Source: an uncultured Alphaproteobacteria bacterium
GTDB taxonomy: Bacteria; Pseudomonadota; Alphaproteobacteria; Rickettsiales; CAIJLX01
NCBI GenBank assembly: GCA_903821695.1
Contig: CAIJLX010000022.1
Coordinates: forward strand, 12,406 to 76,405
DNA length: 64,000 nucleotides
Direction: 5' to 3'
Shown here: positions 6,467-64,000 of the stretch, piece after piece
How the letters are laid out: each line of letters opens with the position of its first letter
Position numbering within the stretch: the stretch's first letter is position 1
The notes under the pieces: generated by a model
Database searches by the model: none
What the model saw: only the letters and a program-made list of their open reading frames with translations
Told to the model about the DNA's origin: nothing
Translations under genes and position numbers: made by a program

Positions 6467-7230
6467 AACACCTACTCGAACATCGCGGATTACTCCATCT
6501 GACTGGTGATGATGTGCGCTCATTTTTGCAGGGGCTATTAACGAATGATATTCACAAACTCACACCTGAAAAAAGTCTCTATGCAGCTTTGCTCACGCCG
6601 CAAGGAAAATTTCTCTATGATTTTTTTGTGTATGATTGGCAAGGCGGAGTGCTCCTCGAATATTATAAACCGATGGCAGCCGACATACTCAAAAAACTAA
6701 CACTCTATCGCCTGCGCTCGAAAATCACCTTCACTGATGTCAGCGACCAATATATGACGATTGCAGCCTGGGGCGATGAACAACCCAACCTCAAAGATCC
6801 TCGCCACGAAAAAATGGGCATGCGTTATATTACTGCTGAAAAACTATCCGACAATTTGGTGCCTGCGAGCGAGTATCACGCCCATCGTATTGCGCTTACC
6901 ATTCCGGAAATGCCGGATGATTTGATTAGCGGCGATTCATTTCCACTACTTAGCAATATGGAAGAGTTGCATGCCATCGATTATCAGAAGGGATGTTATG
7001 TGGGCCAAGAAGTTACTGCCCGCAGCAAATATCGCGGCAATCTTCGCAAGAAAATTTGGACAGTAAAAATAGAAGGTGATGCACCTGCGCCCGGCACACC
7101 AATCCGCATCGGCCAACGTGTGGTCGGTACGATGTTAAGCCACGCGAATGATTTGGGTTTGGCGCAAATAGAAAATGAAGTTGCGGCGCAAAAGCTACAG
7201 GCTGAGAAAGCAACGCTCACTATCCTATAA
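6463..7230 (+). CDS. ygfZ: YgfZ/IBA57 folate-binding Fe-S assembly protein
   Basis: KGCYVGQE signature and LLTPQGK. Confidence 0.92.
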   Translation: MKHLLEHRGLLHLTGDDVRSFLQGLLTNDIHKLTPEKSLYAALLTPQGKFLYDFFVYDWQGGVLLEYYKPMAADILKKLTLYRLRSKITFTDVSDQYMTIAAWGDEQPNLKDPRHEKMGMRYITAEKLSDNLVPASEYHAHRIALTIPEMPDDLISGDSFPLLSNMEELHAIDYQKGCYVGQEVTARSKYRGNLRKKIWTVKIEGDAPAPGTPIRIGQRVVGTMLSHANDLGLAQIENEVAAQKLQAEKATLTIL

Positions 7231-7263
7231 ATAAAAATGGGGCAGCGTTTCTGCTGCCCCATT
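7231..7263 (-). terminator. Intrinsic terminator for the flgE operon
   Basis: AATGGGGCAGC-N6-GCTGCCCCATT stem followed by a T-run on the minus strand, between convergent ygfZ and flgE. Confidence 0.75.
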
Positions 7264-7281
7264 CCCATTACATTAGCTTGC

Positions 7282-9423
7282 CTAGCGTAACATATCCGTC
7301 AATTTTTGTAGAAGACCGTCTACCGTTGTAATCGTCTTCGTATTTGCTTCATAAGAACGCTGAGCAACGATCATGCTGGTAAGCTCGTTCGAAAGTTCAG
7401 TGCTCGAGTTTTCAAGCGACTCAGGTGAAACTACACCTACGCCACTTTGCCCTGCTTGCTTCAGTGTAAATTCACCCGAAATATCGCTTTGTTTGTAGGC
7501 GTTGCCGGTTGTCGCGCCCAAACCATTGATGTTTGGGAAATCCGCCAACGGAATTTTATACACTTTGCGTGATTGGCCGTTGCTATAGTTGAACGAGATG
7601 ATGCCATCTTTATCAATCGAAACCGAAGTTAGCAGACCTGCGCCCGCACCATCTTGATCAATAAAGCGTACATCGTTACCACCGTCGAACTGTGTTACGC
7701 CATCGGTTTTACCGATTTCGGTTGCGCCCACTGTTCCGACTGGCTGACCTGCTGTACCGAAGTTGAGATCAATCTCACTCGCGATCGCCTGGTTCGCCCA
7801 AGCAATTTCCACCTTCTGCAAGAGACCCGCAGAAACGTTACGCAAGCTGCCATCGCCGTTAAAGGTCAGCGTTCCACTTGCCACCAATCCATCCGAACGT
7901 GTGGAAACAATTTCTGTCGGGGTTGCAGCATATAATTCTACTGCCCATTGGTTATTACCAATTTTAGCAGCGCTATAAATGAAATCATGGCCAACACCCA
8001 AACCGTCAAATAAGGTAATGTTTTTGCTGAAGATATTCGCTTTAATCTTCCCGGATGCAATGTTATTACCACCGACGTTCAGTGCGTTATACACCGGATC
8101 CAATACACCCGTTGGAATACCGAATTCATCAGCAGCACCGATGAAGTTGTTCGCCACACCAGGCGCAGCATCCAAGAACTCAATGGTTGCTAATGGATCG
8201 GTTGCAAAGATTCGCATTTGCGGATCGCTTGTTGTGCTCGTGATGGACGAAGTAATTCCTGATTTGGTAGCGATTACGTTTTTCAATCCATCGAATGTAT
8301 TAAAGCGATCAAGACCTCCGGCAAAGCTTGCGATACCTAACTCACCTACGATATCCGTCGCACCACCTAGGTTCGGGCCATCAACGTTCGTAAATGTCAC
8401 CGCATCGTTTGCATCCCGTGAAGAAACATAGAGACGGTTATTAGTAACGCGTGCAGTTAATCCTGGTGTATTGTTAATGGCGTCTGCCAGGGTTTGCAGA
8501 CTATTAAATCTACCATTGATAGGGTCCGGGCTATTGCTCAATGTAAAGTCGACAGTACCCGATGAGGTGGAGCTAATTCTAAGTATATCAAGCTCATCCG
8601 TTGCGCCAATTGAAAAGGAGCCCGAGGTTGTTGTGGCACCAAGAATACCAGCACCAACGGTTACATCAACGCTTTCCGCAAAACCACCATAGTTGAAAGT
8701 AGTCGTATTCGTACCGTTAATACGCACAGCGAATGACTCACCCGTTGCAAGACCTGAGGTACCACCTGGAGCAATAACGCTGGTTGAGGTGAAAGTAGGT
8801 CCACCGTTAAAGTCTGCAACTGAAACTGGGAGAACGATATCTGCACCTTGGCCAGGAATGGTTTGCTCGGTTGCTTTCAAGTTATGGCCAAAAGATACTT
8901 TCGTGGTTGCTTGTGCTACGGTTGAGCCGCGCGTGTTCACAATCACTAAGCTATCCAAACGTGCGTTTGGCGTGGTGTCCAAGTTACCTGGTTCACCCGG
9001 CAAACGCGCCTGGTTATCAAGCGGCCATGCTTGCAGATAATAACCAGCGGCGTTTTGTAAGTTGCCTCTGCTATCCGTACGGAATGAACCAGCACGGGTA
9101 TAAAGATAGGTTCCAGTTCCATCGTTCTTATCGTTGACCACCATGAAACCTTTACCGGAAATAGCAACGTCGGTTGAAACGCCGGTTGGCTGAATAAGAC
9201 CCTGGCCATCAATCGCACTACGTGTTCTTGCCAATGCGCCGCCACCACCACCACTAGCAGAAGAAAGACCAGTGCTGCCCGTGACCAATGAGGAAAATGT
9301 TGCAGCCTCAGTTTTATAACCAACAGTGTTAATGTTGGATATGTTGTTAGAGATACTGCTGATCGCCGTACCTTGTGAGTTGATTCCGGTTACTCCCGAA
9401 AATAAAGATCCATAAAGACTCAT
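7282..9423 (-). CDS. flgE: Flagellar hook protein FlgE, enlarged (713 aa)
   Basis: N-terminal SNNISNINTVGYK, TDVAISGKGF, YTRAGSF; C-terminal LENSSTELSNELTSMIVAQRSYEANTK. Downstream of flgD; SD AGGAGG. Confidence 0.93.
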   Translation of the reverse strand: MSLYGSLFSGVTGINSQGTAISSISNNISNINTVGYKTEAATFSSLVTGSTGLSSASGGGGGALARTRSAIDGQGLIQPTGVSTDVAISGKGFMVVNDKNDGTGTYLYTRAGSFRTDSRGNLQNAAGYYLQAWPLDNQARLPGEPGNLDTTPNARLDSLVIVNTRGSTVAQATTKVSFGHNLKATEQTIPGQGADIVLPVSVADFNGGPTFTSTSVIAPGGTSGLATGESFAVRINGTNTTTFNYGGFAESVDVTVGAGILGATTTSGSFSIGATDELDILRISSTSSGTVDFTLSNSPDPINGRFNSLQTLADAINNTPGLTARVTNNRLYVSSRDANDAVTFTNVDGPNLGGATDIVGELGIASFAGGLDRFNTFDGLKNVIATKSGITSSITSTTSDPQMRIFATDPLATIEFLDAAPGVANNFIGAADEFGIPTGVLDPVYNALNVGGNNIASGKIKANIFSKNITLFDGLGVGHDFIYSAAKIGNNQWAVELYAATPTEIVSTRSDGLVASGTLTFNGDGSLRNVSAGLLQKVEIAWANQAIASEIDLNFGTAGQPVGTVGATEIGKTDGVTQFDGGNDVRFIDQDGAGAGLLTSVSIDKDGIISFNYSNGQSRKVYKIPLADFPNINGLGATTGNAYKQSDISGEFTLKQAGQSGVGVVSPESLENSSTELSNELTSMIVAQRSYEANTKTITTVDGLLQKLTDMLR

Positions 9424-9474
9424 AAAAACCTCCTTGTTAAATTTGTTTCAATATATGTGATAATGATTTGCTGC

Positions 9475-10170
9475 TTACTGAACCGAGACAATATCCTCCA
9501 GAGGCACTATTTGCCCTTGATCCAACACGACGTTCGTTTTGCCGCCATCAATGCCAACACTCATGACCTTGTCATAAATATAAGTTGTCGCAGCGGTGCT
9601 ATTGCTGTCGCCATCCACCACAGCAACCACAATTTTGTAATTGCCATTATCAACGCGGTTGCCTGATGCATTTTTTGCATCCCATATGACGTTCTGTTTG
9701 CCTTCCGCATTTTTACCCGCGAATGATCCAATTAAGTTTCCAGCATCATCTGAAATGCTGATCAGTGTATTGCTGGTGCCCGCTGGAACATCATAGCTAA
9801 ACTTCACATCGCCAGTGCTAGAGACAACAAATGTATCGCCTTCTACCTGAGCCGTTTTGCCAATGTAATTGACCGCGGACGAAAGCTGCGCGCTCACCGT
9901 AGTGCCAGATTGCAAGCCGATCAATTTATCCAACTTGGTGTTGGTGTTCGTTTGCTGCTCCACTTGTGAAAGGCTCGCCACTTGTTGTGTCCACGCACTT
10001 GGATCGGTTGGGTTGGTCGGGTCTTGGTTCTTCAACTGTGTGACCAACAGTTTGAGGAACGTCGCCTCATCCAGACCTAAGTTCGATTTGGTAGAGCCAG
10101 TCTCATCCGTACTTTTTGCGATGGTGGATGTTGCCGGATTGGTTGCTGAACTAATGCTATCGAGTGCCAT
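9475..10170 (-). CDS. flgD: Flagellar hook capping protein FlgD
   Basis: FLKLLVTQLKNQDPTNP, SQVEQQ, WDAKN..G....G.Y. Confidence 0.93.
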   Translation of the reverse strand: MALDSISSATNPATSTIAKSTDETGSTKSNLGLDEATFLKLLVTQLKNQDPTNPTDPSAWTQQVASLSQVEQQTNTNTKLDKLIGLQSGTTVSAQLSSAVNYIGKTAQVEGDTFVVSSTGDVKFSYDVPAGTSNTLISISDDAGNLIGSFAGKNAEGKQNVIWDAKNASGNRVDNGNYKIVVAVVDGDSNSTAATTYIYDKVMSVGIDGGKTNVVLDQGQIVPLEDIVSVQ

Positions 10171-47786: not shown

Positions 47787-47912
47787 TTAACCTTGGCGCG
47801 CTTTGAAGCGTGGGTTTGCTTTGTTAATTACGTAAATACGGCCTTTGCGACGTACTACGCGGCAGTTCTTGTCGCGCTTTTTTGCAGATTTGAGTGAGCT
47901 TAAAACTTTCAT
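47787..47912 (-). CDS. rpmJ: 50S ribosomal protein L36, zinc-independent type (missed by the ORF track)
   Basis: Manual translation [41 protein letters not shown]; SD AGGAG. Confidence 0.96.
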
Positions 47913-49774
47913 AACCGTATCTCCTGTAGGCGCGGAGTGTTACTCAAGTTTTCCGGCTCTGTCAATTCCTTCTGTTTGAATACCCCATGAATGGTCTTTT
48001 CCCAATGGTGCAGCTTACCGCTAAACAGCTGATATACCGCACGAATACTCGCTATTGTGTGCAAAAACCAATAGAAGGGAAAAATCGGCACGGCGAGCAG
48101 CATATCCCACCATTTATGACGCCATAACACCGCCAGCGCGATAACCAGATGCACACCCATCCCGCCAAACATATTAAAGACCATGAGATTATAGAGCCAA
48201 TCCGGCATCGCATAATCACCGTAATAAGCCAGCAGCGAGAGAGTAATAATCACCGGCGTAATGATAAAAGCGAACGAGGCCGAACCAATAAACAACACAA
48301 ACCCCAGCACCCCCTTAAGCCCCAGCGCCTTCATCGTCCGCTTAGGGTGCCGCAGATGAACAAAGAATGTCTGAATATACCCCTTCACCCAACGCGTACG
48401 CTGCGTAATCCAGTTTTTGAATCTGTTGGGTGCTTCCTCTAGAGTGAGGCTGTCAAGAATCCGGGTTTGATAACCCGCCTCTGCCAGCCGCAAGCCGAGA
48501 TCCGCATCCTCAGTCACGTTATACGGATCCCACGCATGAATGGATTTGAGCACTTGGGTACGGAAGTGATTGCTGGTCCCACCCAACGGCATCGGCAAGC
48601 CTAAACGCTCTAGACCATAGAGCATCGCATCAAACCACATGGCGTATTCGAGCGAGAACATCCGGGTGAGCAAATTATCGCGGCGATTATAATAATTGAG
48701 GCGAGCCTGCACACAGCCAAGTTTCTTGCCATATTCAGCAAACATTTGTGCCGCTTTGCGTAGCTGTTGCGGCTCCGGCACATCCTCCGCATCATAGATG
48801 GTGGCCAAGGTGCCTTTGGCAAACTGCAGAGCATAATTACAGGCCTTCGGTTTGGTTTGCGGCTTGGAATGTGGCACCCGTACGATATGGAAAATACGTT
48901 CCGGTTTTTGAGCGATGAGGTTTTGGATGGTGTCGCTGTCATCCTCCTCCACAATCAATTTCACATCTAGTTTATCCTTCGGATAATCGAGTGCTCGAAT
49001 TGCTTGGATCAATGATTTGACGGTTGAGGCTGGCTCCTTAAAGAGCGGCACGAAAATAGTATAAGTCGGCAAATCTGCATCGGCGATAATGCGGTGGGTT
49101 TGAGGCTTTTCGCTGTAAAAATAACCAGCCCAAAAGATGTGGAACTTAAATAGCATTGCGAGCAAGTAGACGCCGTTGATAACGGCAAGCAGACCTAAGG
49201 TTGAAGCCTCAAAAAAGAATGCGGCAAACAATAGGCAGAGAAATATCGGTAGCCAAAAATTGCGCTTACGCCGCAGCATAAATAGTCGGCGGGCGGAGCG
49301 TTGCGGCTCGAACCGCCAGAGCTGTTGCACGGCATGCTCGCATAAGGCGCTGCCAGCATGAAGCTGCACTTGCTCGTAAATATCGTGCGGCGTAGCGAGT
49401 ACGCATTCGACGGGTTCTTCGAATAGAACCTCTAGTTTTTTTTGTGTGTTTTCTTGTGCGGGTTCGGCCATTGCGATTAACAGCTTTCCCCCTTCCCTGC
49501 GCCAGGGGATTATCTGCATGGGGAGATAGGAATGTGTGTGGTCGGAATCGAATAAGGGATGGTCGCATGGGTGATCGCGTAGGTTTACAAATCGTAGGCC
49601 CAATAGCTGAGCTAGCACAGTGTAGAGTTCGAGGTGATGTAGTGCACCGAGGCTTACTAAGATTTCACCCAAGCGTGCACCGGATTTGGTTTGGATCTCT
49701 AATGCTTGCGTAAGTTGTTGTTCGGTGATGCTTCCGGCGGCAAGCAGCGCTTCGCCCAAACGCACGCCCAGCAT
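47909..49774 (-). CDS. Processive GT2 glycosyltransferase with N-terminal MshEN (c-di-GMP-binding) domain
   Basis: Tandem RLGxxLLxxG...LxxQ motifs; YDAED, TEDADLG, QRTRW; TM helices before and after the catalytic domain. Confidence 0.88.
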
Positions 49775-50583
49775 TAGAAGCGATACCAGATGCTAAAGAG
49801 GCCGCCGGTGCCTTCGCCGGTATTGCGCTCATATACCGTTTGGAACATGCCTACTTGCAGTGACCATTTTGGTGAAAACCAATAGAGGCCGGAAAGCTGA
49901 AGCTTCACCAAATCATAATCAAATGCGTTGCTTAATAATGCGCTACCGCTGCCTGTACCTGCGCCATCAGCGGCGAAGGTGCCTTGCGCTTCACCGATGA
50001 TTTGCCAATGCTCCGCCACCCGATAACCCAATGTGGTTGCCAGCCGCCATTCATCGCCTGGCACTTCGGTGCGTACGCGATAAGCAACTTCATTATTCCA
50101 ATAATGTCTGCCTTGGTTGCCAAAATTACGGCCATAGAGAAGGCGCATTTCATAATCAAGCTGCTCTTGGCCGAGTGTTGGTAAATCGTTTTTATCATAG
50201 CCCCCGGGAAGTTTGACCAACGGCTGGATCGAGATCACGTTTTGGCCATCATTATAAAGCCGGGTGCGGATGAATATTTCGCTATCGGCGAGGTTGGAAT
50301 TGGTTTGCTCATCACCAAACATTTTTTGAGTCACATACTGGAAGCTTGGCGAAATTCCTAAAGTCACCGTATTGGTGAGGCCATATTCGATATAGGGGTT
50401 ATATTCGTATTTTTTATAAGGCTCTTGCGAGGAGGAATTGCCATGTTCATCGACATAGCGATCGCTGGTGTAATAGGTGAAGTTATTGATAACTTGGCCT
50501 TCGCCTTCGTTCAATGTCCAGGCGGCGGCGTGTAGCTCCGTGCAGATCAGCAGCCCTAGCAACAATGCAAGGGCTATCCGCAT
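49774..50583 (-). CDS. Putative outer-membrane beta-barrel protein
   Basis: Signal peptide, alternating aromatic/polar strands (EYGL, YGRNF, LGYRV) and a C-terminal beta-signal ...SIWYRF. Confidence 0.75.
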   Translation of the reverse strand: MRIALALLLGLLICTELHAAAWTLNEGEGQVINNFTYYTSDRYVDEHGNSSSQEPYKKYEYNPYIEYGLTNTVTLGISPSFQYVTQKMFGDEQTNSNLADSEIFIRTRLYNDGQNVISIQPLVKLPGGYDKNDLPTLGQEQLDYEMRLLYGRNFGNQGRHYWNNEVAYRVRTEVPGDEWRLATTLGYRVAEHWQIIGEAQGTFAADGAGTGSGSALLSNAFDYDLVKLQLSGLYWFSPKWSLQVGMFQTVYERNTGEGTGGLFSIWYRF

Positions 50584-53672: not shown

Positions 53673-54668
53673 ATGCAAAACACCCATTACGATAAAATAA
53701 AGGCCAGCCTCGAGGCCTCCCCCCGCCATTGGTTAGTAACGGGTGCCGCTGGCTTCATCGGCAGCCAGATTGTAGAAACTTTGCTTAAACTTTCGCAGCA
53801 GGTAACCGGTCTTGATAATTTCATGACCGGCACTCCAAAAAATATTGAGGCAGCGAAAAAACTCTCGCCTAAAAATTTCCGCTTTATAGAAGGTGATATC
53901 CGCGATGCCGCCCTCTGCGCTGAAGCAGTGCGTGGAGTTGATATCGTGCTGCATCATGCCGCATTAGGCAGTGTTCCTCATTCCATCTCTGATCCGCAAT
54001 TAGCCCATGCCATCAATGTGGATGGGTTTATGAATATGCTACTGGCAAGCAAAGAAGCAAAAGTGAAGCGCTTCGTCTATGCTAGCTCCTCTGCCTGTTA
54101 TGGCGACAGCACTGCCATCCCGGCCCGCGAAGGCGAGGAGGGTAATTTATTATCCCCTTATGCGGCAACCAAAGCGATTAATGATCTATATGCCCAAGTT
54201 TTCTCGAAGGCTTATAGCTTGCCGACGATTGGCCTGCGCTATTTCAACATTTTTGGTCCACGCCAGGATCCGAATGGACCCTATGCGGCGGTGATTCCGC
54301 TATGGATGAATAATCTGATGCAAGGTGCGCCATGCTTCATTAATGGTGATGGTGAAACCACGAGAGATTTTTGTTATGTTGATAATGCCGTGCAGGCTAA
54401 TATTTTGGCAGGTGTTGCACCACAGGAAGTGACTGGCGAGGTGCTGAATATTGCCGTTGGCACTAGCTCTACTTTGAATGAGTTATATGCCGCGATTCGC
54501 AATGAAATTGGCAGTCCTAAACCTGCCAGCTTCCGCGAGTTTCGTGAGGGGGATGTTCGGCATTCACTGGCCGATATTTCTAAGGCCAAGAAGCAGCTTG
54601 GCTATGCCCCCACCCATCAACTGAATGATGGCATCCGCGAAACGGTGAAGTGGTTTACCTCGCTTTAG
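53673..54668 (+). CDS. UDP-GlcNAc/GalNAc(A) 4-epimerase (WbpP/TviC-like SDR)
   Basis: GAAGFIG, H.AALGSVP.SI.DP, YASSS, SPYAATK, RYFNIFGPRQDPNG.YAAVIP. Confidence 0.88.
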   Translation: MQNTHYDKIKASLEASPRHWLVTGAAGFIGSQIVETLLKLSQQVTGLDNFMTGTPKNIEAAKKLSPKNFRFIEGDIRDAALCAEAVRGVDIVLHHAALGSVPHSISDPQLAHAINVDGFMNMLLASKEAKVKRFVYASSSACYGDSTAIPAREGEEGNLLSPYAATKAINDLYAQVFSKAYSLPTIGLRYFNIFGPRQDPNGPYAAVIPLWMNNLMQGAPCFINGDGETTRDFCYVDNAVQANILAGVAPQEVTGEVLNIAVGTSSTLNELYAAIRNEIGSPKPASFREFREGDVRHSLADISKAKKQLGYAPTHQLNDGIRETVKWFTSL

Positions 54669-56613
54669 TCTCAACCACGTCGTTGAGTATCACCGCACTA
54701 ATCTCTGTCAGCTGGCGTGGATATTGCGAAAGGAAGCGTTTAAACCGAGACGTATTTTCGCCCTGGCGGATCACCATAAAAATAGTTCCTGCAAACTCCA
54801 ACAATTGAAGGTCAGGAAGTGTTGGGCAATCGATGATAACGAGATCAAATTCTTCAGACAAAATATGCATGAGCGATTTCAATTTTTCTTGATCTTGCAA
54901 GAGATCATAATTTGCAGCTTCCGTGCCCGACGGAATAAACCACAGTTTCTCATCCACTGGATTCGCGAGCACTTGCTCAAGCGTTGCCTTACCCGCAATC
55001 AAATCCGAAAATCCTGGCACCTTGAGTGCAGAGAAATTTAGATGCAAAGAACCTTTCAGAATATCTCCATCAATCAACAAAACACGCTTTTTCTCGGATG
55101 CCAGAAGCGAGAAATTTGCAGCAAGAAAGGATTTACCCTGCTTCTCATGATGACTCGTAAACAGCAAAATATTATTGTGTGCACCGCTGGTAATATCATC
55201 AAGAATGGTCTTCAAGTTTCTTAATACTAATGCAGCATTATCAGTTACATCCATCAGATAATTATTCATACCCAAAGCTTTGCTTTTTTTCTCCGCCGAG
55301 TCACTATGCGGGATAGATGCAATGACAGGCAATTTAGTGACCTTCTTCAGCATTTCAGGATTGCGAATGTTGCGCAATCGAATATTGCCGAACAGTGTAA
55401 AGCATAGGCACAAAAACACGCCACCTACTCCACCAAGCACAGCAGCAATAGTAATCTTCATCCAATCGATCGTTTTCTCGATCACGGAAGGGCTGATGAC
55501 ATGTGCTTCACTCTTAATGATTTCACGCGAGAGCCTATTAATTTCAGCAGTGCTATCGAGGAATAATTGGCGGACAATAATGACTTCATCATTGAGCTGA
55601 TAAAACCGACGCTCGGCATCCGGCAATTTTACTATTTCAGGCTCAATACTATTGAGCTGTTTTTTGTAAGAGTCGATCTGTTCTGTGAATCCCAGCACCA
55701 CAGGATCTTGCGGTGCGTGGGTTGCAAGCAGTTCTGTTTTTCCTGATTCGAGATCACCGACTTTACTGCCTAAACCAGCAGCAAGTTGGATGAGCTCTAA
55801 TGTCTCCTCGGAAAAGGTTGATGTATCCTCTCTCGCGAGCGCTTCTTTTGCAACTTTTAATTGCGCTTGAATCTCTTTATTTTTAGCCCGCAAATTTGCC
55901 AATACATCTGCACGATTGCGGATGGTATTTTCGAGCGACTTGTCAACATAGACACCCATCAAGGTATCAAGAAAGTGTTTTGCAAATTCTGGTTCTTGAG
56001 CTGCAAAATGCAGCTCAATGCTGCTATCATTTATTTTGATGGCGCGGATATTTTTCTGTATCGTTTGCAGATAGGTTTCGGGTGACAATGGTGTAATAAT
56101 AAATTCCTCGCCCGCACCTGCTGCTAGGCTTGCCACCTTAATAGCAAAACCATTTTCTTTTACTTCTTCACCACCTGCTTTTCCTTGCAGGAGTGCCTTG
56201 CCGTAGGAATCATAGAGCACAAAGATTTCGTCAGCCTCCATCCGCAACTTAAACGGACTTTCCCAATAGGCTTTAGGTACCGTAAATTGCTCAAGCTCTA
56301 GGCTTAACATATCCATCCCCGTCAGCTGCTCCAACAAATGTGTGTTGTGCGCGACAAAGGCAGAAACACCCCCGGTGCTTTTCGCGATGGCTTCGGTAAG
56401 GTTTTGGTTGGAAAGGATAAGCCGCATAGCTGCATCAGCTGAAATTTGTGGCTCAATTTGCAGCTGGCCTCTGGCGGTGTTAATAACGGGGATACCAACA
56501 CTTCCAAGCACCGCTGTAACAACGCTTATAATAATCAGCAATAGATACCACCATTTGCCCCGATTCGGCGTTGGGGTAGTCGTATGTGAAAAAGGGGAGA
56601 ATCTTTGCTGCAT
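54655..56613 (-). CDS. Wzc-like polysaccharide co-polymerase/BY-kinase, degenerate
   Basis: Two TM helices, periplasmic coiled coil (HDP-like ...PQDPVV), Walker-like QGKS, LLIDGD and IIDCP; no C-terminal Tyr cluster. Confidence 0.8.
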   Translation of the reverse strand: MQQRFSPFSHTTTPTPNRGKWWYLLLIIISVVTAVLGSVGIPVINTARGQLQIEPQISADAAMRLILSNQNLTEAIAKSTGGVSAFVAHNTHLLEQLTGMDMLSLELEQFTVPKAYWESPFKLRMEADEIFVLYDSYGKALLQGKAGGEEVKENGFAIKVASLAAGAGEEFIITPLSPETYLQTIQKNIRAIKINDSSIELHFAAQEPEFAKHFLDTLMGVYVDKSLENTIRNRADVLANLRAKNKEIQAQLKVAKEALAREDTSTFSEETLELIQLAAGLGSKVGDLESGKTELLATHAPQDPVVLGFTEQIDSYKKQLNSIEPEIVKLPDAERRFYQLNDEVIIVRQLFLDSTAEINRLSREIIKSEAHVISPSVIEKTIDWMKITIAAVLGGVGGVFLCLCFTLFGNIRLRNIRNPEMLKKVTKLPVIASIPHSDSAEKKSKALGMNNYLMDVTDNAALVLRNLKTILDDITSGAHNNILLFTSHHEKQGKSFLAANFSLLASEKKRVLLIDGDILKGSLHLNFSALKVPGFSDLIAGKATLEQVLANPVDEKLWFIPSGTEAANYDLLQDQEKLKSLMHILSEEFDLVIIDCPTLPDLQLLEFAGTIFMVIRQGENTSRFKRFLSQYPRQLTEISAVILNDVVETKAR

Positions 56614-56710
56614 GGGTCTGTTTTTCTATGGTGCAATCCGCTATTTTGCAAGCTGGCAGTTCTTACCTTGCCTTTAAAACAGATTCCGCTACCCTCATCT
56701 GCCCATTATT

Positions 56711-59089
56711 ATGACCCAAGATCTCCTTATCCAGGCAGCTCAAGCCGAAAAAGCCAATAATCTTATCCAAGCTGATAAGTTATATGATGAGGCGCTCGCC
56801 AAAAACACCAATTATGAAACACTCATCGCAAGCTATCGCGTTGCCAAAAAATTGGGTAACCATCAAAAGGCAGCGAATGTTTTAGAAGCAGCATATCGGC
56901 TGCAACCTTCCCATAACCTCCGATTTGAACTGGCGGTTGCTTATCTGGATGCAGGCAAATTAAATGCCGCTGAAGAAATTGCCAGAGAAGGCTTAAAAAA
57001 GAAGCCCAAAGATTTTGGATTGGCGAATGCCTATGGTGTTATTTTGAAGCGACTGGGTCGCAGCGAAGAAGCCATCGAATATTTTCTGCTAGCAGCAAAA
57101 ATAGAAGGAACCAATTCCTCACCGCCAGTGAATCTCGGCAACACCTATATGATGGTGAATAAGCCCGCGAAGGCGGTGGAGTGGTTTAGCAAAGCTACCC
57201 GCCTTAACCCGAAAGATGGTGAAAATTTCCGTCTATTAGCAAACGCCCATATCCGGTTGGGAGATTATCCGAAAGGAATTTCGACTTTAGAACAAGCACT
57301 CGTGCGCTCTCCTAAAAACATCAAGGCGCGTATCGATATTTTTGGCATTTATTTAAAGGACAAAGATTACAGTGCGGCACTGCATCAACTTGAACTAGGG
57401 TTTCAAAGCTTCCCCAATCACCCCCTTTTAATCCGCAATAAAGTGATTCTCCTGCGCCGTATGGGTCAGCATGATGAAGCGTTGCAGTTGCTAGAAGAGC
57501 TATTGAAGCAAGAGCCAAACAATGATGAAACCTTGGCGGCACTGGGCGATCTTTACTACCAATCCTTAGGCAATCGGGAGAAGGCAAATTTTTATTATAA
57601 CAAGGCACTGCTGAGCAATCCGCAGAATTTTAATGCAGCGGCTCAATATTGCGAATGCTTGCTCAATAGCCGTTATGGCAGCGAGGCGGAGCATATTGCA
57701 AAGGCCTATGAAGTTGCCTGCAACTTGCTCGAAAACCAAGTTGATACATTAAAAATTGCGGCTTCGGTACAGGGCATTTTTTTGCGGCTTCTTGATTATG
57801 ACCGTCTTGCTCAATTGGGCGATCGTAAGAAATTATTGAGTTATTGGTTAACGCAAATGAATGTGGGCGAATTGCATAATCAGCTGGGTCGCGTGCAAAC
57901 AATTGAAGATAGGCTTGAACTTGTTTCCATGCACCGTGCGTGGGGTGATAAAATAGATGCTATAGCCGCCAAGAATCCGATTATACGGCATAGCTCGCCT
58001 CACTCCTCCGACAAAATACGCATCGGGATTATGTCTTCGGATTTGCGTAACCATCCGGTAACGTATTTTGTACTGCCGATTTTGAAATATTATGACCGCA
58101 GTAAGTTTGAGCTCTATTGCTATTCGTTCTATCAAAAAGAAGCGGACATGATGCAGCAGAAAATTGTTGAGATGGTCGATAGTTTTAATTTAATGCCCTA
58201 TGCGACAGATCAGGCCGTGGCGCAAAAAATAGCCGATGATAAAATTGATATTTTGTTCGAGCTTGGCGGCACCACATTAATGAATAAAATCGAAGTCTGT
58301 TCCTATCGCCCTGCGCCTATTCAAGTAAGCTGGCTTGGCTATCCGCATTCGAGTGGCCTCAGCACCATCGATTATATTTTGGTCGATCCATATATCAACC
58401 CTGAGCAGCCTGGATTGCTGATCGAAAGACCGTTCCTCTTGCCTGAAAGCTGGGTCAGCTTAGACGAGCTCGGTTTTTATGACATACCCATTGAACCGGG
58501 CATACCGGAGCAGAAAAATGGCTGGGTCACTTTTGGCACCGCCAACAACCCCTATAAATATACACCCAAATGTTTCGAGACATGGGCAGCGATTATGCGC
58601 CAGGTTCCGAATTCCCGCTTCCTGTTTATCCGCCCGGAAGGTGACGTTGAATATTTCAAACAAAATGCGATTGGCCATTTTACCAAGCATGGCATCGAAG
58701 CAGAGCGTATTGTCTTCTCGCCAATACGTGGCAAGCATATGCCACATTATAACAAAATTGATATCGCTCTTGACCCCTTCCCGCACGTCGGCGGCACGAC
58801 AACCTGCGAAGCCCTCTGGATGGGTGTGCCGACGATTACCTTGGTTGGCCCCGCCTTTTTTGAGCGCCTAAGTTATAGCAATTTGAGCAATGCAGGCTTA
58901 GGTGAATGTTGTGCATTTGACCTCGATTCCTATATCAGCAAAGCAGTGACACTTGCCAATGACCCAGAAAAAAGGCTTTATTTACGCCATCATTTACGCC
59001 AGCAGATTTCGGAAAACCCATTAGGGCAACCCGAACGCTTCGTAAGAAATTTTGAACAGAAGATTTTAGAAATAATGGGGAAAGCATGA
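56711..59089 (+). CDS. TPR-repeat GT41 (OGT/SPINDLY-like) protein glycosyltransferase
   Basis: Multiple TPRs, then RIGIMSSDLRNHPV, RPAPIQVSWLGYP.SSGL, FG..NN..K, DPFP..GGTTTCEALWMGVP. Confidence 0.88.
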   Translation: MTQDLLIQAAQAEKANNLIQADKLYDEALAKNTNYETLIASYRVAKKLGNHQKAANVLEAAYRLQPSHNLRFELAVAYLDAGKLNAAEEIAREGLKKKPKDFGLANAYGVILKRLGRSEEAIEYFLLAAKIEGTNSSPPVNLGNTYMMVNKPAKAVEWFSKATRLNPKDGENFRLLANAHIRLGDYPKGISTLEQALVRSPKNIKARIDIFGIYLKDKDYSAALHQLELGFQSFPNHPLLIRNKVILLRRMGQHDEALQLLEELLKQEPNNDETLAALGDLYYQSLGNREKANFYYNKALLSNPQNFNAAAQYCECLLNSRYGSEAEHIAKAYEVACNLLENQVDTLKIAASVQGIFLRLLDYDRLAQLGDRKKLLSYWLTQMNVGELHNQLGRVQTIEDRLELVSMHRAWGDKIDAIAAKNPIIRHSSPHSSDKIRIGIMSSDLRNHPVTYFVLPILKYYDRSKFELYCYSFYQKEADMMQQKIVEMVDSFNLMPYATDQAVAQKIADDKIDILFELGGTTLMNKIEVCSYRPAPIQVSWLGYPHSSGLSTIDYILVDPYINPEQPGLLIERPFLLPESWVSLDELGFYDIPIEPGIPEQKNGWVTFGTANNPYKYTPKCFETWAAIMRQVPNSRFLFIRPEGDVEYFKQNAIGHFTKHGIEAERIVFSPIRGKHMPHYNKIDIALDPFPHVGGTTTCEALWMGVPTITLVGPAFFERLSYSNLSNAGLGECCAFDLDSYISKAVTLANDPEKRLYLRHHLRQQISENPLGQPERFVRNFEQKILEIMGKA

Positions 59090-59856
59090 AAGCAGTAATC
59101 CTAGCTGGCGGAAAAGGCACCCGCATCACCGAAGAGTCCGCCACCCGTCCAAAACCGATGATCGAGATCGGCGGCATGCCTATCCTTTGGCACATCATGA
59201 AAATTTACTCCAAACATGGCGTAAACGATTTTGTTATTTGCCTTGGCTATAAGGGATATATCATCAAAGAATATTTCGCGAATTATGTTCGTCACCAATC
59301 CGACATCACCATCGACCTCACCAAAAACAAAATCGAATATCATTCCGGCAAAGCCGAGCCTTGGCGCATCACGTTAGTCGATACGGGTGAAGAAACCCAA
59401 ACCGGCGGACGCATCAAACGTGTGCAGAAATATTTAGATAAAAACAAACCCTTCTGCCTCACCTATGGTGACGGCGTTTCGGATGTAAATATCAAAGCCC
59501 TCATCGCCCATCACAAAAAAGAAAAACGGGCGGCGACTGTCACCGCCGTTCAACCTTCCGGCCGTTTCGGCGCATTGGTAACACAAGGAAATAAAGTAAC
59601 CTCGTTCGTCGAAAAACCAAAAGGCGATGGTGGTATTATTAATGGCGGCTTCTTCGTACTCGAACCGGAAGTGATCAAATACATAAAAGACGACACCACC
59701 ATCTGGGAAAATGATCCGCTCGAAACACTCGCCACCCGTGGCCAACTCACCGCCTATAAACATTCCGGCTTCTGGCAACCGATGGACACCATGCGCGATA
59801 AAAATCACCTCGAGCAACTCTGGGCAACCGGCAAAGCCCCATGGAAAATATGGTAA
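59086..59856 (+). CDS. rfbF: Glucose-1-phosphate cytidylyltransferase
   Basis: LAGGKGTRI.EE....PKPM, TQTGGR, TYGDGV, INGGFF, GFWQPMDT.RD. Confidence 0.95.
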   Translation: MKAVILAGGKGTRITEESATRPKPMIEIGGMPILWHIMKIYSKHGVNDFVICLGYKGYIIKEYFANYVRHQSDITIDLTKNKIEYHSGKAEPWRITLVDTGEETQTGGRIKRVQKYLDKNKPFCLTYGDGVSDVNIKALIAHHKKEKRAATVTAVQPSGRFGALVTQGNKVTSFVEKPKGDGGIINGGFFVLEPEVIKYIKDDTTIWENDPLETLATRGQLTAYKHSGFWQPMDTMRDKNHLEQLWATGKAPWKIW

Positions 59857-60896
59857 GTAATTTCTGGCAGAATAAGAAGGTATTACTCACCGGCCACACC
59901 GGCTTCAAAGGGGTGTGGGCTGCGTTATGGCTAAAACAGATGGGCGCCTCCGTCACCGGCATCGCCCTCGAACCAGACAATAAATTTTACGACATTATGA
60001 ACCACCTACCCGGCATCAAAAATCATACTTGCGATATCCGAGACCGCAAAGCACTTCTTCCCATCTTAAAAGAGGCCGCCCCCGATATAGTGATCCACAT
60101 GGCCGCTCAATCCTTGGTCCGGAAATCTTACCACGATCCACTTACCACGTTCGAAACCAACATCCTCGGCACTGCCAATATCTTATATCTCTTGCGCGAA
60201 CTCCCTACCCCGCCGCAAGTCGTCTTGGTCATCACCAGCGACAAAGTTTACGAAAATACAGAGACTGGAATTCCGCTCAAAGAAACCGACCGCTTCGGTG
60301 GCGATGATCCCTATAGTGCCTCCAAAGCCTGCACCGAAATCGTCACCGCTTCGATGCGCAAAAGCTATTTCAAAGATACCATCGTCGCGACCGCCAGAGC
60401 TGGTAATGTTATCGGCGGCGGCGATTGGTCTGAAGATCGCTTGATCCCCGATATCATCCGGAGCCTCGAAAACAATACACCCTTTACTCTACGCAACCCG
60501 AACTCCACTCGCCCATGGCAACATGTGCTCGATGTATTACATGGCTATTTCGTCTATATCGAAGCCCTCGCCCAGAAAAAAGAAATCCCCCTCTCCCTCA
60601 ATTTCGGCCCATCTGATGAGGCCTGCATCCCCGCCGGCGAGATCGTAAGCAAAATGGAAAAAGCATTAGGCAGCACCCCACGCAAAGAAGCTAGCGCGCC
60701 TTCCACCCTCGCTGAAAAGACATTATTGCATCTTGATTCGAGCCTCGCTGCCAAAGCCCTAAAATGGCGCCCCAAGCTCTCAATCGATGAATCCATTAAC
60801 TGGACTGCAAGCTGGTATGCCGCCTATTTAAAAGGCGAAGATATGAAGGCTTTCTCACTCCAACAACTCACCGCCCATGAAAGTTTACGCCCATGA
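59841..60896 (+). CDS. rfbG: CDP-glucose 4,6-dehydratase
   Basis: TGHTGFKG.W, H.AAQ.LVR.SY.DP, TSDKVY, DPYSASK, RAGNVIGGGDW, RPWQHVL. Confidence 0.94.
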   Translation: MENMVSNFWQNKKVLLTGHTGFKGVWAALWLKQMGASVTGIALEPDNKFYDIMNHLPGIKNHTCDIRDRKALLPILKEAAPDIVIHMAAQSLVRKSYHDPLTTFETNILGTANILYLLRELPTPPQVVLVITSDKVYENTETGIPLKETDRFGGDDPYSASKACTEIVTASMRKSYFKDTIVATARAGNVIGGGDWSEDRLIPDIIRSLENNTPFTLRNPNSTRPWQHVLDVLHGYFVYIEALAQKKEIPLSLNFGPSDEACIPAGEIVSKMEKALGSTPRKEASAPSTLAEKTLLHLDSSLAAKALKWRPKLSIDESINWTASWYAAYLKGEDMKAFSLQQLTAHESLRP

Positions 60897-62119
60897 GTTT
60901 TCACTGCCGTTTCTGCAATACACTGCTCAAAAACACCTTCGTTGACTTGGGTTCAACACCACTCGCCAATAGCTATTTGCCAACCGCAGATGCACCTGAC
61001 CAATCCTATCCATTGCATGTTTATGTGTGCAGTAAATGCTACCTCGTGCAACTGCACCACACCGTCTCGCCAGAAAATATTTTTGGCCATTACGCTTACT
61101 TCTCTTCCTACTCCAGCAGCTGGCTCGAACACGCTACTCGCTTCTGCGACAAAATGAAAAAACGCCTGTCGCTAAATTCTTCCAGCAAGGTCGTAGAAAT
61201 CGCGAGTAATGATGGTTATCTGCTAAAGAATTTCGTCGCCGCAAACATCCCATGCCTCGGCGTTGAACCTGCCAAAAATGTCGCCGAAGTTGCTATCGCC
61301 AACGGTGTACCAACTGAGGTTGTTTTCTTCGGCAAAGCATCTGCCCAAGCACTCAAAGATAAAGGCCATGCTGCTGATCTAATCGCTGCTAATAACGTGC
61401 TCGCGCATGTACCCGATCTGAATGATTTTGTCGGTGGCTTTAAAGTGCTGCTCAAACCAGATGGCGTCATTTCCGTTGAGTGCCCACACTTGCTCAAACT
61501 CATCCAGCAAAACCAATTCGACACCATTTATCACGAGCATTATTCCTATTACTCCCTACTCACATTAGAAAAAATATTCGCCGCCCATGGCCTAGAAATT
61601 TTCGATGTAGAAGAACTCCCCACCCATGGTGGCAGCCTACGTATTTTTGCCTCGCATGCTGGCAAACCTCGTTGGCCTTCCTCGCCTGCTTTTGCGAAAG
61701 TGAAGCAAGATGAAAAACATGCAATGCTAGATAGCCTCGCTGGCTATGAAGGCTTCAGCAAACAAGTCAAAACTGTATGCGATGGTTTACTCACCTTTCT
61801 CAAACAGGAAAAGACAAAAGGTAAAAAAATTGCCGCCTATGGTGCAGCCGCAAAAGGTAATACCTTGCTCAATGTCTGTGGTATCAACACTGATTTAATT
61901 AGCTTCGTAGTCGATAAAAATACCGCCAAACAAAATCACTTTTTACCCGGCAGTAAAATCCCGATTTTTGGCCCCGAAAAAGTCTTTGCTGAAAAGCCTG
62001 ATTATCTCGTAATCTTACCTTGGAATATTGCCGAAGAAGTGCGCGAACAGATGAAAGATATTCGCAGCTGGGGCGGAAAATTTGTGACCGCCATTCCGCA
62101 ATTAAGGGTGTATGAATAA
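60893..62119 (+). CDS. NDP-hexose 3-C-methyltransferase (SAM- and Zn-dependent)
   Basis: Zn site CRFC...C..C..VQL; EIASNDG, NNVLAHV, IYHEH, HGGSLR, YGAAAKG.T. Confidence 0.88.
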   Translation: MSFHCRFCNTLLKNTFVDLGSTPLANSYLPTADAPDQSYPLHVYVCSKCYLVQLHHTVSPENIFGHYAYFSSYSSSWLEHATRFCDKMKKRLSLNSSSKVVEIASNDGYLLKNFVAANIPCLGVEPAKNVAEVAIANGVPTEVVFFGKASAQALKDKGHAADLIAANNVLAHVPDLNDFVGGFKVLLKPDGVISVECPHLLKLIQQNQFDTIYHEHYSYYSLLTLEKIFAAHGLEIFDVEELPTHGGSLRIFASHAGKPRWPSSPAFAKVKQDEKHAMLDSLAGYEGFSKQVKTVCDGLLTFLKQEKTKGKKIAAYGAAAKGNTLLNVCGINTDLISFVVDKNTAKQNHFLPGSKIPIFGPEKVFAEKPDYLVILPWNIAEEVREQMKDIRSWGGKFVTAIPQLRVYE

Positions 62120-62649
62120 TGCGTTTTGAAAAAACGGATATTGAAGGATTACTTTTAATTGAGCCAGAACGGCATACCGATAATCGCGGCTATTTCGCCC
62201 GCAGTTTTTGTGAAGAGGAATTGCAACAACAAGGCATTCCATTTCACATCCGTCAATCCAGCGTTTCGTTCAATCCACAACAAGGTACATTGCGTGGTAT
62301 GCACTTCCAACTCCACCCAAAACCGGAAGCGAAAATTGTCCGCTGCGTTCGGGGCAAGGCATTTGATGTCGTCATTGATTTAAGAAAAAATTCGAACACT
62401 TATTTGCGCTGGGTCGGCATGGAGCTTTCCGAAAAAAATGGTTCGAGTTTTTATATTCCAGTAGGGTGCGCTCACGGCTTTCTGACACTGCAACCTGATA
62501 CCGAAATGCTCTATATGATGGATATGGATTATGATGCTGCTAGCTCTGGTGGTGTGCGTTGGGATGACAAAGCATTTGGCATCAAGTGGCCTTCGCAACC
62601 AACGTTGATGTCGGATAAAGATGCCTCCTGGCCGGATTATGTCCGATAA
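62119..62649 (+). CDS. rfbC: RmlC/RfbC-family NDP-4-keto-6-deoxyhexose 3,5-epimerase
   Basis: D.RG.F, GTLRGMH.Q, E.K.VRC..G...DV..DLR, GCAHGF.TL, W.D. Confidence 0.9.
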   Translation: MRFEKTDIEGLLLIEPERHTDNRGYFARSFCEEELQQQGIPFHIRQSSVSFNPQQGTLRGMHFQLHPKPEAKIVRCVRGKAFDVVIDLRKNSNTYLRWVGMELSEKNGSSFYIPVGCAHGFLTLQPDTEMLYMMDMDYDAASSGGVRWDDKAFGIKWPSQPTLMSDKDASWPDYVR

Positions 62650-63538
62650 GATTATTTTGCTCACAGGAGCTTCCGGCTTTATTGGCCGGCATGTAGTAAC
62701 ACCTTTGCTTGAACGTGGTTATACGATTCACGCTATCACCCATACAAAACAGCCCTCAAAAGAAGTCATTTGGCATAATGCCGATCTACTAAATGCAAAA
62801 GAGCACCGGCAGATTATTGAGAAAATTCACCCACATTCTCTGCTGCATCTTGCCTGGTATGTGGAGCATGGAAAATTTTGGAATGCTCCAGAGAATGTAC
62901 TCTGGCAAGATGCGAGTATTGATCTATTTTCTTATGCAAAAACAGTGGGTGTTAAACGCCTGGTCAGCATCGGTACGTGCGCCGAATATGATTGGAATAG
63001 GAAGGATACAACGCCATTTAAAGAGAGCGATCCATGCCTTCCCCACACTCTCTATGGAAAGGCGAAATTGAGCGTATTTGAATCACTAAAATCGACGTAC
63101 ACCAATTTTGCTTGGGGTCGAATTTTCCATCTCTTTGGTAAGAGGGAACATACAGATCGACTCGTCTCTTCCGTGATTCATGCGCTCAAAAATGATCAGC
63201 CTGCTAAATGCACCTCGGGCAAACAAGTGCAGGATTTTATGGATGTTCAAGATGTCGGTGCAGCGATTGCTGCGTTGCTTGATTCGGAAGTGACAGGTCC
63301 TGTTAATATTGCTTCTGGCAAGGGAACTTCAGTTGCAGAAATGGCACTGATGATTGGTCGCTTGATGCAGAAAGAAAACTTGGTTCAATTAAATGCATTA
63401 CCAGATCGACCAGATACGCCTGCCTATATTGTAGCCGATATCGAACGCTTAAAACGTGAAGTAAGATTTACGCCTAGTTTTTCATTGGAAGAAAGATTGG
63501 CCCAATTGATAATCCCCGGCTCCGAGCTTGTAGTTTGA
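62639..63538 (+). CDS. NAD(P)-dependent sugar 4-ketoreductase/epimerase (SDR)
   Basis: TGASGFIG, HLAW, GTCAEY, YGKAK, W.RIF; start at ATG 62639. Confidence 0.85.
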   Translation: MSDKIILLTGASGFIGRHVVTPLLERGYTIHAITHTKQPSKEVIWHNADLLNAKEHRQIIEKIHPHSLLHLAWYVEHGKFWNAPENVLWQDASIDLFSYAKTVGVKRLVSIGTCAEYDWNRKDTTPFKESDPCLPHTLYGKAKLSVFESLKSTYTNFAWGRIFHLFGKREHTDRLVSSVIHALKNDQPAKCTSGKQVQDFMDVQDVGAAIAALLDSEVTGPVNIASGKGTSVAEMALMIGRLMQKENLVQLNALPDRPDTPAYIVADIERLKREVRFTPSFSLEERLAQLIIPGSELVV

Positions 63539-64000
63539 ACGTCACCCGTACGTATGATGTTATCATAATCGGTGCCGGTGCCGCCGGGCTGATGTGCGCC
63601 ATTGAAGCAGGTAAGCGTGGACGCAGTGTATTGGTGTTAGACCATGCCACCAAGCCCGCAGAAAAAATCCGGATCTCTGGCGGTGGCAGATGCAACTTCA
63701 CGAACATTCACACCACCCCCAAAAACTTCCTCTCCCAAAATCTTCATTTTTGCGTATCTGCATTGAGTCGCTACACGCCGAAAGACTTCATCTCCCTCGT
63801 CAACAAACACAACATCGCCTATCACGAAAAAACTCTAGGCCAGCTTTTCTGTGATAGATCCTCCCGCCAAATCATCGATATGTTGCTAGCCGAATGCGCC
63901 GCTGTAAATGTAGCCATCCAACTAAATACTAGTATCCGCAATATCGCTAAAACCGAAGTCGGATTTACCCTTACTACAGATGACAACAACTTCTCCTGCC
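63535..64000 (+). CDS. HI0933/YhiN (BaiN) family flavoprotein (3' truncated by window edge)
   Basis: TTG start overlapping the previous stop; DVIIIGAGAAG, KIRISGGGRCNFTN, GQLF. Confidence 0.9.
   Translation, partial: MNVTRTYDVIIIGAGAAGLMCAIEAGKRGRSVLVLDHATKPAEKIRISGGGRCNFTNIHTTPKNFLSQNLHFCVSALSRYTPKDFISLVNKHNIAYHEKTLGQLFCDRSSRQIIDMLLAECAAVNVAIQLNTSIRNIAKTEVGFTLTTDDNNFSC

Follow-up and report, generated by a model that had tools for sequence, protein, structure and literature searches.

A candidate protein glycosylation module in an uncultured alphaproteobacterium that links a SPINDLY-like GT41 transferase to a pathway for a CDP-activated, C-methyl-branched deoxysugar

Some bacterial flagellins are glycosylated by soluble enzymes that have one domain for the protein and another for the sugar. 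FlmG of Caulobacter crescentus has been shown experimentally to be a flagellin glycosyltransferase of this kind, with a tetratricopeptide repeat (TPR) domain that binds flagellin and a GT-B domain that determines donor specificity (PMC7591256; bioRxiv 10.1101/2022.03.25.485807). Glycosyltransferases of family 41 (GT41; COG3914, SPINDLY-type) have also been described beside flagellin genes in enterobacterial islands that carry sugar-nucleotide pathways (De Maayer & Cowan 2016, PMC4875605). Here we describe a locus in which a GT41 gene with TPRs stands at the head of five genes for a sugar linked to cytidine diphosphate (CDP). It occupies positions 56711-63538 of a stretch of 64,000 nucleotides (the window) from an uncultured alphaproteobacterium placed in the Rickettsiales (assembly GCA_903821695.1, contig CAIJLX010000022.1, positions 12,406 to 76,405). 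The window is part of an 85-kb contig (C22), and the genome comprises 2.1 Mb in 111 contigs and is scored 100% complete.

We propose that this operon would act as a self-contained module for protein O-glycosylation in the cytoplasm. Its six genes are as follows.

56711..59089, + strand: TPR-GT41 glycosyltransferase, 792 aa (PF13844 and TPR families; AlphaFold2; Foldseek)
59086..59856, + strand: rfbF, glucose-1-phosphate cytidylyltransferase, giving CDP-D-glucose, 256 aa (TIGR02623)
59841..60896, + strand: rfbG, CDP-glucose 4,6-dehydratase, giving CDP-4-keto-6-deoxy-D-glucose, 351 aa (TIGR02622)
60893..62119, + strand: S-adenosylmethionine (SAM)-dependent C-methyltransferase of nucleoside diphosphate (NDP)-4-keto sugars, with an N-terminal Zn ribbon and predicted C-3 methylation, 408 aa (PF08421, PF13489 and PF08484)
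62119..62649, + strand: RmlC-like NDP-4-keto-6-deoxyhexose 3,5- (or 5-) epimerase, 176 aa (PF00908, TIGR01221)
62621..63538, + strand: NDP-sugar 4-ketoreductase of the extended short-chain dehydrogenase/reductase (SDR) type, the predicted last step, 305 aa (PF01370, motifs)

Consecutive genes overlap by 4, 16, 4, 1 and 29 nt, as would be typical of a translationally coupled operon. A preliminary description of this DNA had named the same six overlapping, same-strand genes, and the coordinates of the open reading frames (ORFs), the profile matches and the intact motifs confirm that list. Its further statement, that the cassette holds no flippase, polymerase or second glycosyltransferase, agrees with profile searches of the window proteins.

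The case for a transferase and a pathway that work together comes largely from the comparison of loci. GT41 relatives were gathered from one genome per species and from metagenomes, and their flanks were searched for the five pathway proteins. When a full set is defined as RfbF, RfbG, C-methyltransferase and epimerase within the available flanking stretch, it is present at 31 of the 59 loci of the orthologue clade, and a partial set is present at 16; this neighbourhood survey bears out the expectation that GT41 co-occurs with rfbF, rfbG and the C-methyltransferase elsewhere. The other 12 loci have no pathway gene, and many of these are short contigs or contig ends. Loci with the full cassette come from at least six named orders, and the carriers include Microvirga, Paracoccus, Acidisphaera, Roseicella, Dankookia, Phenylobacterium, Asticcacaulis and Rhizomicrobium as well as metagenome-assembled genomes (MAGs) of Bordetella and Acidoferrum. 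The Roseomonas loci are partial, with the epimerase and reductase, or with these and the C-methyltransferase. In the metagenomic relatives that are closest (52-69% identity) the compact cassette is the same but stands among unlike neighbours, which include a chemotaxis operon, a two-component system, an acyltransferase, a cyclic-glucan synthase and a Fic protein. This linkage across many rearranged contexts suggests that transferase and pathway are functionally coupled, and gene order thus provides good evidence that they work together.

The linkage is also confined to one clade of GT41s. In an unrooted maximum-likelihood tree of 130 GT41 catalytic domains, made with a quick search, the window enzyme falls in a clade of 78 members that sits on a long stem and has a support value of 100 in the Shimodaira-Hasegawa-like approximate likelihood ratio test (SH-aLRT). 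The GT41s outside this clade (24-39% identity to the catalytic domain of the window enzyme) have no such pathway genes of their own. The preliminary description had proposed that the GT41 transfers a CDP-linked C-methyl-6-deoxyhexose, made by its five neighbours, onto protein. This is supported at the sequence level by the linkage at 47 of the 59 orthologue loci, the compact cassette of the closest metagenomic relatives and the restriction to a single clade, and we consider it probable that the GT41 uses the product of the cassette.

Three genomes of the window's own order have no GT41 match, and the module therefore appears to be accessory in that order. No full orthologue was found in a search of plasmids. 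A decayed remnant lies on plasmid pRCB133 of Rhodobacter capsulatus SB1003 (L094, 9001-11520), where GT41 is reduced to a C-terminal piece of 214 aa (58% identity, annotated as hypothetical), and rfbF and a fragmented rfbG come after it; the remnant has no methyltransferase and no epimerase.

The sugar that this pathway would make can be predicted step by step. RfbF and RfbG both exceed the cut-offs of their equivalog models (456 bits for TIGR02623, cut-off 300, and 408 bits for TIGR02622, cut-off 278), and the RfbG motifs GHTGFKG and YSASK are intact. By the established pathway such a pair gives CDP-4-keto-6-deoxy-D-glucose. The Zn-ribbon methyltransferase would then add a C-methyl branch, most likely at C-3. 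It has the Zn ribbon (PF08421), with its cysteines intact (CRFC at 5-8 and CSKC at 46-49), the SAM domain (PF13489) and the characteristic C-terminal domain (PF08484). Methylation at C-3 is likely because its closest solved relatives, namely 4rv9 (E 5e-79; deposited as D-mycarose 3-C-methyltransferase), 5t64 and TcaB9 (3ndi), are all 3-C-methyltransferases. The RmlC-like enzyme, which scores 212 bits with PF00908 and 171 bits with TIGR01221 (cut-off 156) and has RmlC enzymes as its closest solved relatives (E 1e-43), would epimerise the sugar, and epimerisation at C-5 would yield an L-sugar. The SDR would finally reduce the 4-keto group. It matches PF01370 at 125 bits and RmlD weakly, stays below every equivalog cut-off and has only generic SDR matches in the PDB; its motifs GASGFIG (GxxGxxG) and YGKAK (YxxxK) are intact, and its orthologues come after the epimerase in many cassettes. 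The pathway would thus end in a CDP-6-deoxy-3-C-methylhexose, and each residue transferred would make the acceptor about 160 Da heavier; the position of the methyl group and the stereochemistry are predictions.

A compound of this type has long been known. CDP-vinelose from Azotobacter vinelandii is CDP-6-deoxy-3-C-methyl-2-O-methyl-L-talose and dates from the biochemistry of the 1960s. It is the only natural CDP-linked 3-C-methyl-6-deoxyhexose that we know of, and we know of no acceptor for it; a literature search for vinelose found nothing. Profile searches of the cassette (56711-63538) found no methyltransferase besides the C-methyltransferase, and hence no sugar O-methyltransferase, so the product would not be vinelose itself.

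The transferase has the features of an active GT41. PF13844 matches it at 168.1 bits (cut-off 25) in two stretches that span both lobes of the catalytic domain, TPR families match over residues ~40-340, and a profile search of the genome shows it to be the sole PF13844 gene. The AlphaFold2 model, built on 28 homologues, has a mean predicted local distance difference test (pLDDT) score of 91.3 and a predicted template modelling (pTM) score of 0.80. It consists of paired helices that form a TPR superhelix (residues 2-420) and an alternating strand/helix GT-B domain (436-792), and has no membrane segment. We presume that the superhelix (~1-420) is the part that binds the acceptor and that the C-terminal GT-B domain (~430-792) is the part that binds the donor and carries out transfer. 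By sequence, Arabidopsis SPINDLY comes first among solved structures (E 1e-65 over residues 404-778), ahead of human OGT, a Thermobaculum enzyme and the Xanthomonas OGT homologue, and the top Foldseek matches are SPINDLY, human and fly OGT, and XcOGT.

Conservation of H448, K616 and T697/T698 is at least 85% in each of the three groups into which the 130 aligned GT41 domains fall, and K616 and the TTT motif (696-698) align with SPINDLY. We take these residues to be the counterparts of H498, K842 and T921/T922 of OGT, which have catalytic and phosphate-binding roles. With these residues conserved, the window enzyme looks active. The motif R641-P642-E643 (RPE) is invariant in the window clade and variable in other GT41s, and an involvement in donor choice is only a suggestion. 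In the proposed mechanism the TPR superhelix would bind a protein acceptor, and the inverting GT-B domain would move the sugar from CDP to serine or threonine; the acceptance of CDP as nucleotide is predicted from gene linkage, a protein side chain as acceptor is inferred from the family and from the flagellin-linked relatives, and Ser/Thr are presumed as the residues modified.

Which protein would be modified is a separate question, and here the relatives of the window enzyme are the best guide. Within the 78-member clade there is a subclade of 65 members (SH-aLRT 98) that holds the window enzyme and all compact cassettes that are unlinked to flagellin. The lineages of the clade outside this core adjoin flagellin genes. 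In a sample of 401 genomes of the class, flagellin was sought in the 13 with the closest matches to the GT41 catalytic domain. The GT41 match is 0.2-8 kb from a flagellin gene in nine of them and ~8-12 kb away in a tenth, and in the remaining three flagellin is encoded on other contigs, most of them short. Transferase and pathway genes lie beside flagellin genes in the relatives L096-L103, and in four of these (L096, L097, L098 and L099) RfbF, RfbG, C-methyltransferase, epimerase, GT41 and flagellin are all found in one island.

A good example is the 19-kb flagellin island of a 1.8-Mb alphaproteobacterium (L099; G384, contig C2:60000-79900). It contains fliD, three flagellins, a reductase, two tandem GT41s, a CmcI-like O-methyltransferase, an unknown 294-aa protein, the epimerase, the C-methyltransferase, rfbG, rfbF and fliW, and this set of enzymes would fit a vinelose-like sugar with C-methyl and O-methyl groups. 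In another island (L098; G120, contig C5:273600-293500) the reductase is replaced, at 7069-9903, by a DegT aminotransferase, an N-formyltransferase and a CmcI-like methyltransferase fusion, which predicts a 4-formamido C-methyl sugar as the product. The simplest reading of these loci is that donor and enzyme were first paired in islands for flagellin glycosylation and that the pair afterwards turned into a portable unit of six genes. This direction of change, from flagellin islands to compact cassette, is an inference drawn on an unrooted tree.

The window genome has a candidate acceptor of this kind. It encodes one flagellin, of 700 aa (C53:529-2631), next to fliD and fliS, and a FlgL-like gene on C55, so that the genome encodes both flagellin and flagellar genes; the cassette itself is on C22. 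No glycosyltransferase lies beside the flagellin gene. The protein is unusually long for a flagellin, and its conserved N- and C-terminal helices are set apart by a large central region. We propose that this single flagellin would be the most likely acceptor and that it would be modified before export. That the GT41 uses the product of the cassette and that flagellin is its acceptor, taken together, we hold to be about an even chance.

The distribution of flagellin among carriers is a further, weak line of evidence. Flagellin is found in 25 of 28 and in 13 of 13 carrier genomes, and two carriers without flagellin have frameshifted cassette genes. The first is the complete genome of Defluviicoccus vanus Ben 114 (L022, CP053923, 12163-15790), which has no flagellin match; its rfbF and RmlC-like gene are each split by a frameshift, while GT41, rfbG, the methyltransferase and the reductase are intact. 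The second is a Roseicyclus MAG in which rfbF and other cassette genes are frameshifted. In Defluviicoccus the frameshifts may reflect either decay once the flagellum was lost or assembly error.

Several points weigh against flagellin, and some against the proposed donor as well. Flagellin is common in these taxa, so its presence in 25 of 28 carriers says little, and the frameshift argument comes from two genomes in which assembly errors are possible. No flagellin gene lies within 10 kb of the module in the window or in the 65-member subclade, where the sole match is a weak one in L016. Compared with the window GT41, the flagellin-linked relatives are only 29-37% identical in full length and 37-44% identical in the catalytic domain, which implies that the TPR parts, which would choose the acceptor, have diverged. 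RTX proteins adjoin the module in several lineages, and the genes just upstream of it in the window, for a Wzc-like kinase and a TviC-like epimerase, allow for a use of the sugar in polysaccharide. As for the donor, 5-C-methyltransferases such as NovU belong to the same family as the TylC3/TcaB9-type enzymes, and a 5-C-methyl (noviose-type) product is an alternative that is compatible with the sequence. Finally, no characterised GT41 with a cytidine-diphosphate donor was found in the literature searched.

The RTX neighbours raise the possibility, which we rate as rather unlikely, that the module and its donor are as proposed but that in the subclade the acceptor is an adhesin, or some other substrate of type I secretion, in the form of a large RTX-repeat protein. 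This would be glycosylated in the cytoplasm before export, and the acceptor would have switched after the module left the flagellin loci. The clearest such locus is that of Rhizomicrobium electricum (L092, JAASQS010000003.1, 1-9401 and 17335-22165). Here one side of the cassette has a divergent gene for a 12,666-aa protein, with 89 RTX motifs within the 3,157 aa examined, and the other side has a gene set for type I secretion (AprE/HlyD-like, ABC and OEP). In L025 the GT41 gene is followed after 131 nt by the start of a gene for an RTX-repeat protein longer than 3,290 aa. Two Roseomonas loci (L011 and L012) encode an RTX protein longer than 2,190 aa ~2 kb downstream, and L090, which carries the closest relative among the tree rows (66% over the catalytic domain), encodes a protein with RTX and immunoglobulin-like domains 4 kb upstream. 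RTX ORFs occur in the available flanks of 12 of 62 clade loci and of 1 of 38 other GT41 loci (Fisher p = 0.016), a p-value that ignores phylogeny and the high density of RTX genes in Alphaproteobacteria; the count of 12 takes in L015, whose large neighbour is a Hint-domain protein without an RTX match. Most clade loci, however, have no RTX gene nearby. There is a precedent in the GT41 relatives without TPRs (HMW1C/NGT), which glycosylate secreted adhesins (PMC3012730).

The window genome itself is rich in such genes, with at least 14 ORFs that have four or more RTX nonapeptide motifs in its 2.1 Mb, but the nearest one in the window is ~53 kb from the cassette. The RTX ORFs are on contigs C22, C33, C50, C53, C75, C89, C91, C94, C97 and C106, the one in the window being at 2540-3562 (minus strand); two of them are ~2,100 aa long, and those on C50 and C97 are paralogues with 62% identity. 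We also considered whether the RTX neighbours of the cassettes form an orthologous family and rejected this: the adjacent proteins are alike mainly in their repeats, and no common orthologue emerges. The more specific idea that the whole 65-member subclade, with the window enzyme, was retargeted to giant type I-secreted RTX adhesins, decorated in the cytoplasm with the CDP-derived C-methyl-branched 6-deoxyhexose, we put forward only tentatively and regard as doubtful. If true, it would, as far as we have found, be the first report of a glycosylation system for substrates of type I secretion and also of a branched-chain sugar attached to protein. The preliminary description had offered flagellin, FlgE and RTX proteins as acceptors. 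Flagellin has the stronger, comparative case, the case for RTX proteins is weaker but real, and nothing was found for FlgE.

The module, with the same donor, may instead act on a protein of another kind: a pilin, for example, a protein of chemotaxis or regulation, or, as with OGT and SPINDLY, several proteins of the cytoplasm. SPINDLY, which has many targets in the nucleus and the cytosol, is also the closest solved relative. The contexts of the compact cassettes vary and usually point to no acceptor, and in L087 a complete che operon is directly upstream. The GT41 Ogt of Synechococcus is reported to be needed for glycosylation of the pilin PilA (bioRxiv 10.1101/2021.07.06.449578). On the other hand, when all flanking ORFs were clustered, only flagellin, in the lineages outside the 65-member core, and RTX proteins recurred, and a dedicated pathway for a rare sugar would fit the decoration of surface structures better than regulation. 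An acceptor of this kind is, in our judgement, unlikely.

The immediate surroundings of the cassette bear on a reading in which no protein is involved. These are listed below.

53673-54668: TviC-like (UDP-sugar) epimerase, just upstream of the cassette (profile search)
54655-56613, minus strand: Wzc-like kinase, divergent from the cassette (profile search)
56614..56710, no strand: divergent intergenic gap of 97 nt between the Wzc-like gene and the GT41 gene, the presumed promoter region of the operon
63535..64000, + strand: HI0933-like FAD protein (flavoprotein), with a 4-nt overlap with the reductase stop (PF03486 at 170 bits)

Given the genes for the Wzc-like kinase and the TviC-like epimerase directly ahead of the cassette, and that for an MshEN-GT2 protein 7 kb upstream, the sugar could be destined for a non-protein glycan (lipopolysaccharide, capsule or exopolysaccharide). 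In that case the acceptor of the GT41-like enzyme would be a glycan or lipid, or the enzyme would have nothing to do with its neighbours and would use UDP-GlcNAc, UDP-Glc or GDP-Fuc. The donors of characterised GT41s are in fact all linked to uridine diphosphate (UDP; PMC4875605) or guanosine diphosphate (GDP; GDP-fucose for SPINDLY, from the titles of PDB 7y4i and 8dti). A set of RfbF, RfbG and a C-methyltransferase of the same family (55% identical to that of the window) also occurs on pSymB of Sinorhizobium meliloti 1021 (L095, 7160-10227), and the 19 kb examined there has no match to GT41, epimerase or reductase. But the Wzc-like and TviC-like neighbours are beside the cassette in no other locus, whereas GT41 and cassette stay together, with overlapping reading frames, through unrelated contexts. 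The GT41 is moreover a soluble TPR and GT-B protein with no membrane segment in its model, and no flippase, polymerase or initiating transferase accompanies the cassette. We therefore see a non-protein glycan as a very unlikely destination for the sugar.

The HI0933-like gene, the Wzc-like kinase and the TviC-like epimerase went unmentioned in the preliminary description. The first of these is a seventh co-oriented gene, and we considered it as a member of the module. We left it out: it is absent beside the cassette in L087, L090, L092 and L093, and it probably lies outside the module. The presumed promoter region was also searched. A promoter scan of the 97-nt gap (56614-56710) found no sigma-70-like site on the + strand and only a weak match on the minus strand at 56733-56705. 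Inspection by eye upstream of the GT41 gene found no correctly spaced sigma-54 site (TGGCAG-N8-TTGC) and no sigma-28-like site, and a comparison with the region upstream of the flagellin gene found no common motif. We assign no promoter to the gap. A flagellar promoter ahead of the GT41 gene was thus not found, a result that is neutral for flagellin as the acceptor.

Further upstream, the F0 operon of the ATP synthase in the window encodes both b and b' subunits, which is the usual alphaproteobacterial arrangement; the class-level sample agrees with this, its GT41 relatives being alphaproteobacterial. Directly downstream of the F0 genes is a gene for a 269-aa protein without a Pfam match, and this is followed by that for the MshEN-GT2 protein (47909-50583, minus strand), whose N-terminal MshEN domain is of the type that binds cyclic di-GMP.

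Returning to the proposal that the module glycosylates flagellin with its own CDP-linked sugar, there are several reasons why it matters. A GT41 fed by a CDP-sugar would widen the known range of donors for OGT and SPINDLY enzymes and, if true, would provide natural variants for the study of nucleotide choice. The preliminary description knew of no characterised GT41 with such a donor, and this holds in our literature searches, which are of partial coverage: they returned no study of a GT41 with a CDP donor, none of a protein bearing a C-methyl-branched sugar, and no experimental study that pairs CDP-glucose and C-methyltransferase genes with GT41 or flagellin. C-methyl-branched deoxysugars are, to our knowledge, known mainly from antibiotics and a few lipopolysaccharides, and we are aware of none that is attached to protein. 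Vinelose-type CDP-linked 3-C-methyl sugars may also gain a biological role through the module. It is self-sufficient with six genes and is also found in the cultivable Asticcacaulis, Rhizomicrobium, Microvirga and Paragemmobacter, which makes its donor, product and acceptor directly testable.

Of the known systems, the nearest in structure is Arabidopsis SPINDLY, which transfers a 6-deoxy-L-hexose, fucose. It shares the TPR superhelix and GT-B domain (PDB 7y4i, 8dtf-8dti; Foldseek E 1e-36, TM ~0.6), the lysine and histidine that are K616 and H448 here, and the TTT motif (696-698 here). Unlike the window enzyme, with its linked pathway from CDP-glucose and C-methyl branch, SPINDLY takes GDP-fucose as donor and modifies nuclear and cytosolic plant proteins, and the overall identity between the two is 24-25%. 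The HMW1C/NGT enzymes of Haemophilus and Actinobacillus (PMC3012730; PDB 3q3e, 8j30) have in common with it a GT41 catalytic domain, with weak matches (E 3e-6; NF049992 33 bits), and they glycosylate large secreted adhesins in the cytoplasm, a likeness that bears on the RTX proteins as acceptors. However, they have no TPR domain, use UDP-glucose or UDP-galactose, form an N-link to asparagine and are very distant in sequence.

On the side of the sugar, the set of enzymes predicted for vinelose matches the five pathway genes of the window, but the cassette has no O-methyltransferase and its product would carry no O-methyl group. The CmcI-like O-methyltransferases that vinelose would need are found in the relatives L098 and L099.

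FlmG is the working model for how the window enzyme would act. It is a soluble two-domain enzyme that acts in the cytoplasm, before export, with a cytidine-linked donor, and the window enzyme would share these traits. This analogy is drawn from descriptions of FlmG, and FlmG differs in transferring nonulosonic acids from CMP-Pse or CMP-Leg and in having 596 residues; Caulobacter vibrioides, used as a control genome, has a PF13844 match. The enterobacterial flagellin islands also have GT41s beside flagellin genes and sugar-nucleotide pathways, and one type of island has genes for CDP-4-keto-6-deoxy-D-glucose (PMC4875605). Their GT41s, in contrast, are mostly fused to methyltransferase domains and were assumed to transfer GlcNAc derivatives, the evidence is comparative genomics only, and no C-methyltransferase is mentioned (PMC4875605).

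The term 'new protein glycosylation system', used in the preliminary description, is too strong: the window enzyme belongs to a clade of flagellin-island GT41s, and such enzymes have been catalogued before (PMC4875605). In summary, what is known is the glycosylation of protein in the cytoplasm, here probably of flagellin, by an enzyme with TPR and GT-B domains, and what is new is the predicted CDP-linked, branched donor and the portable form in six genes.

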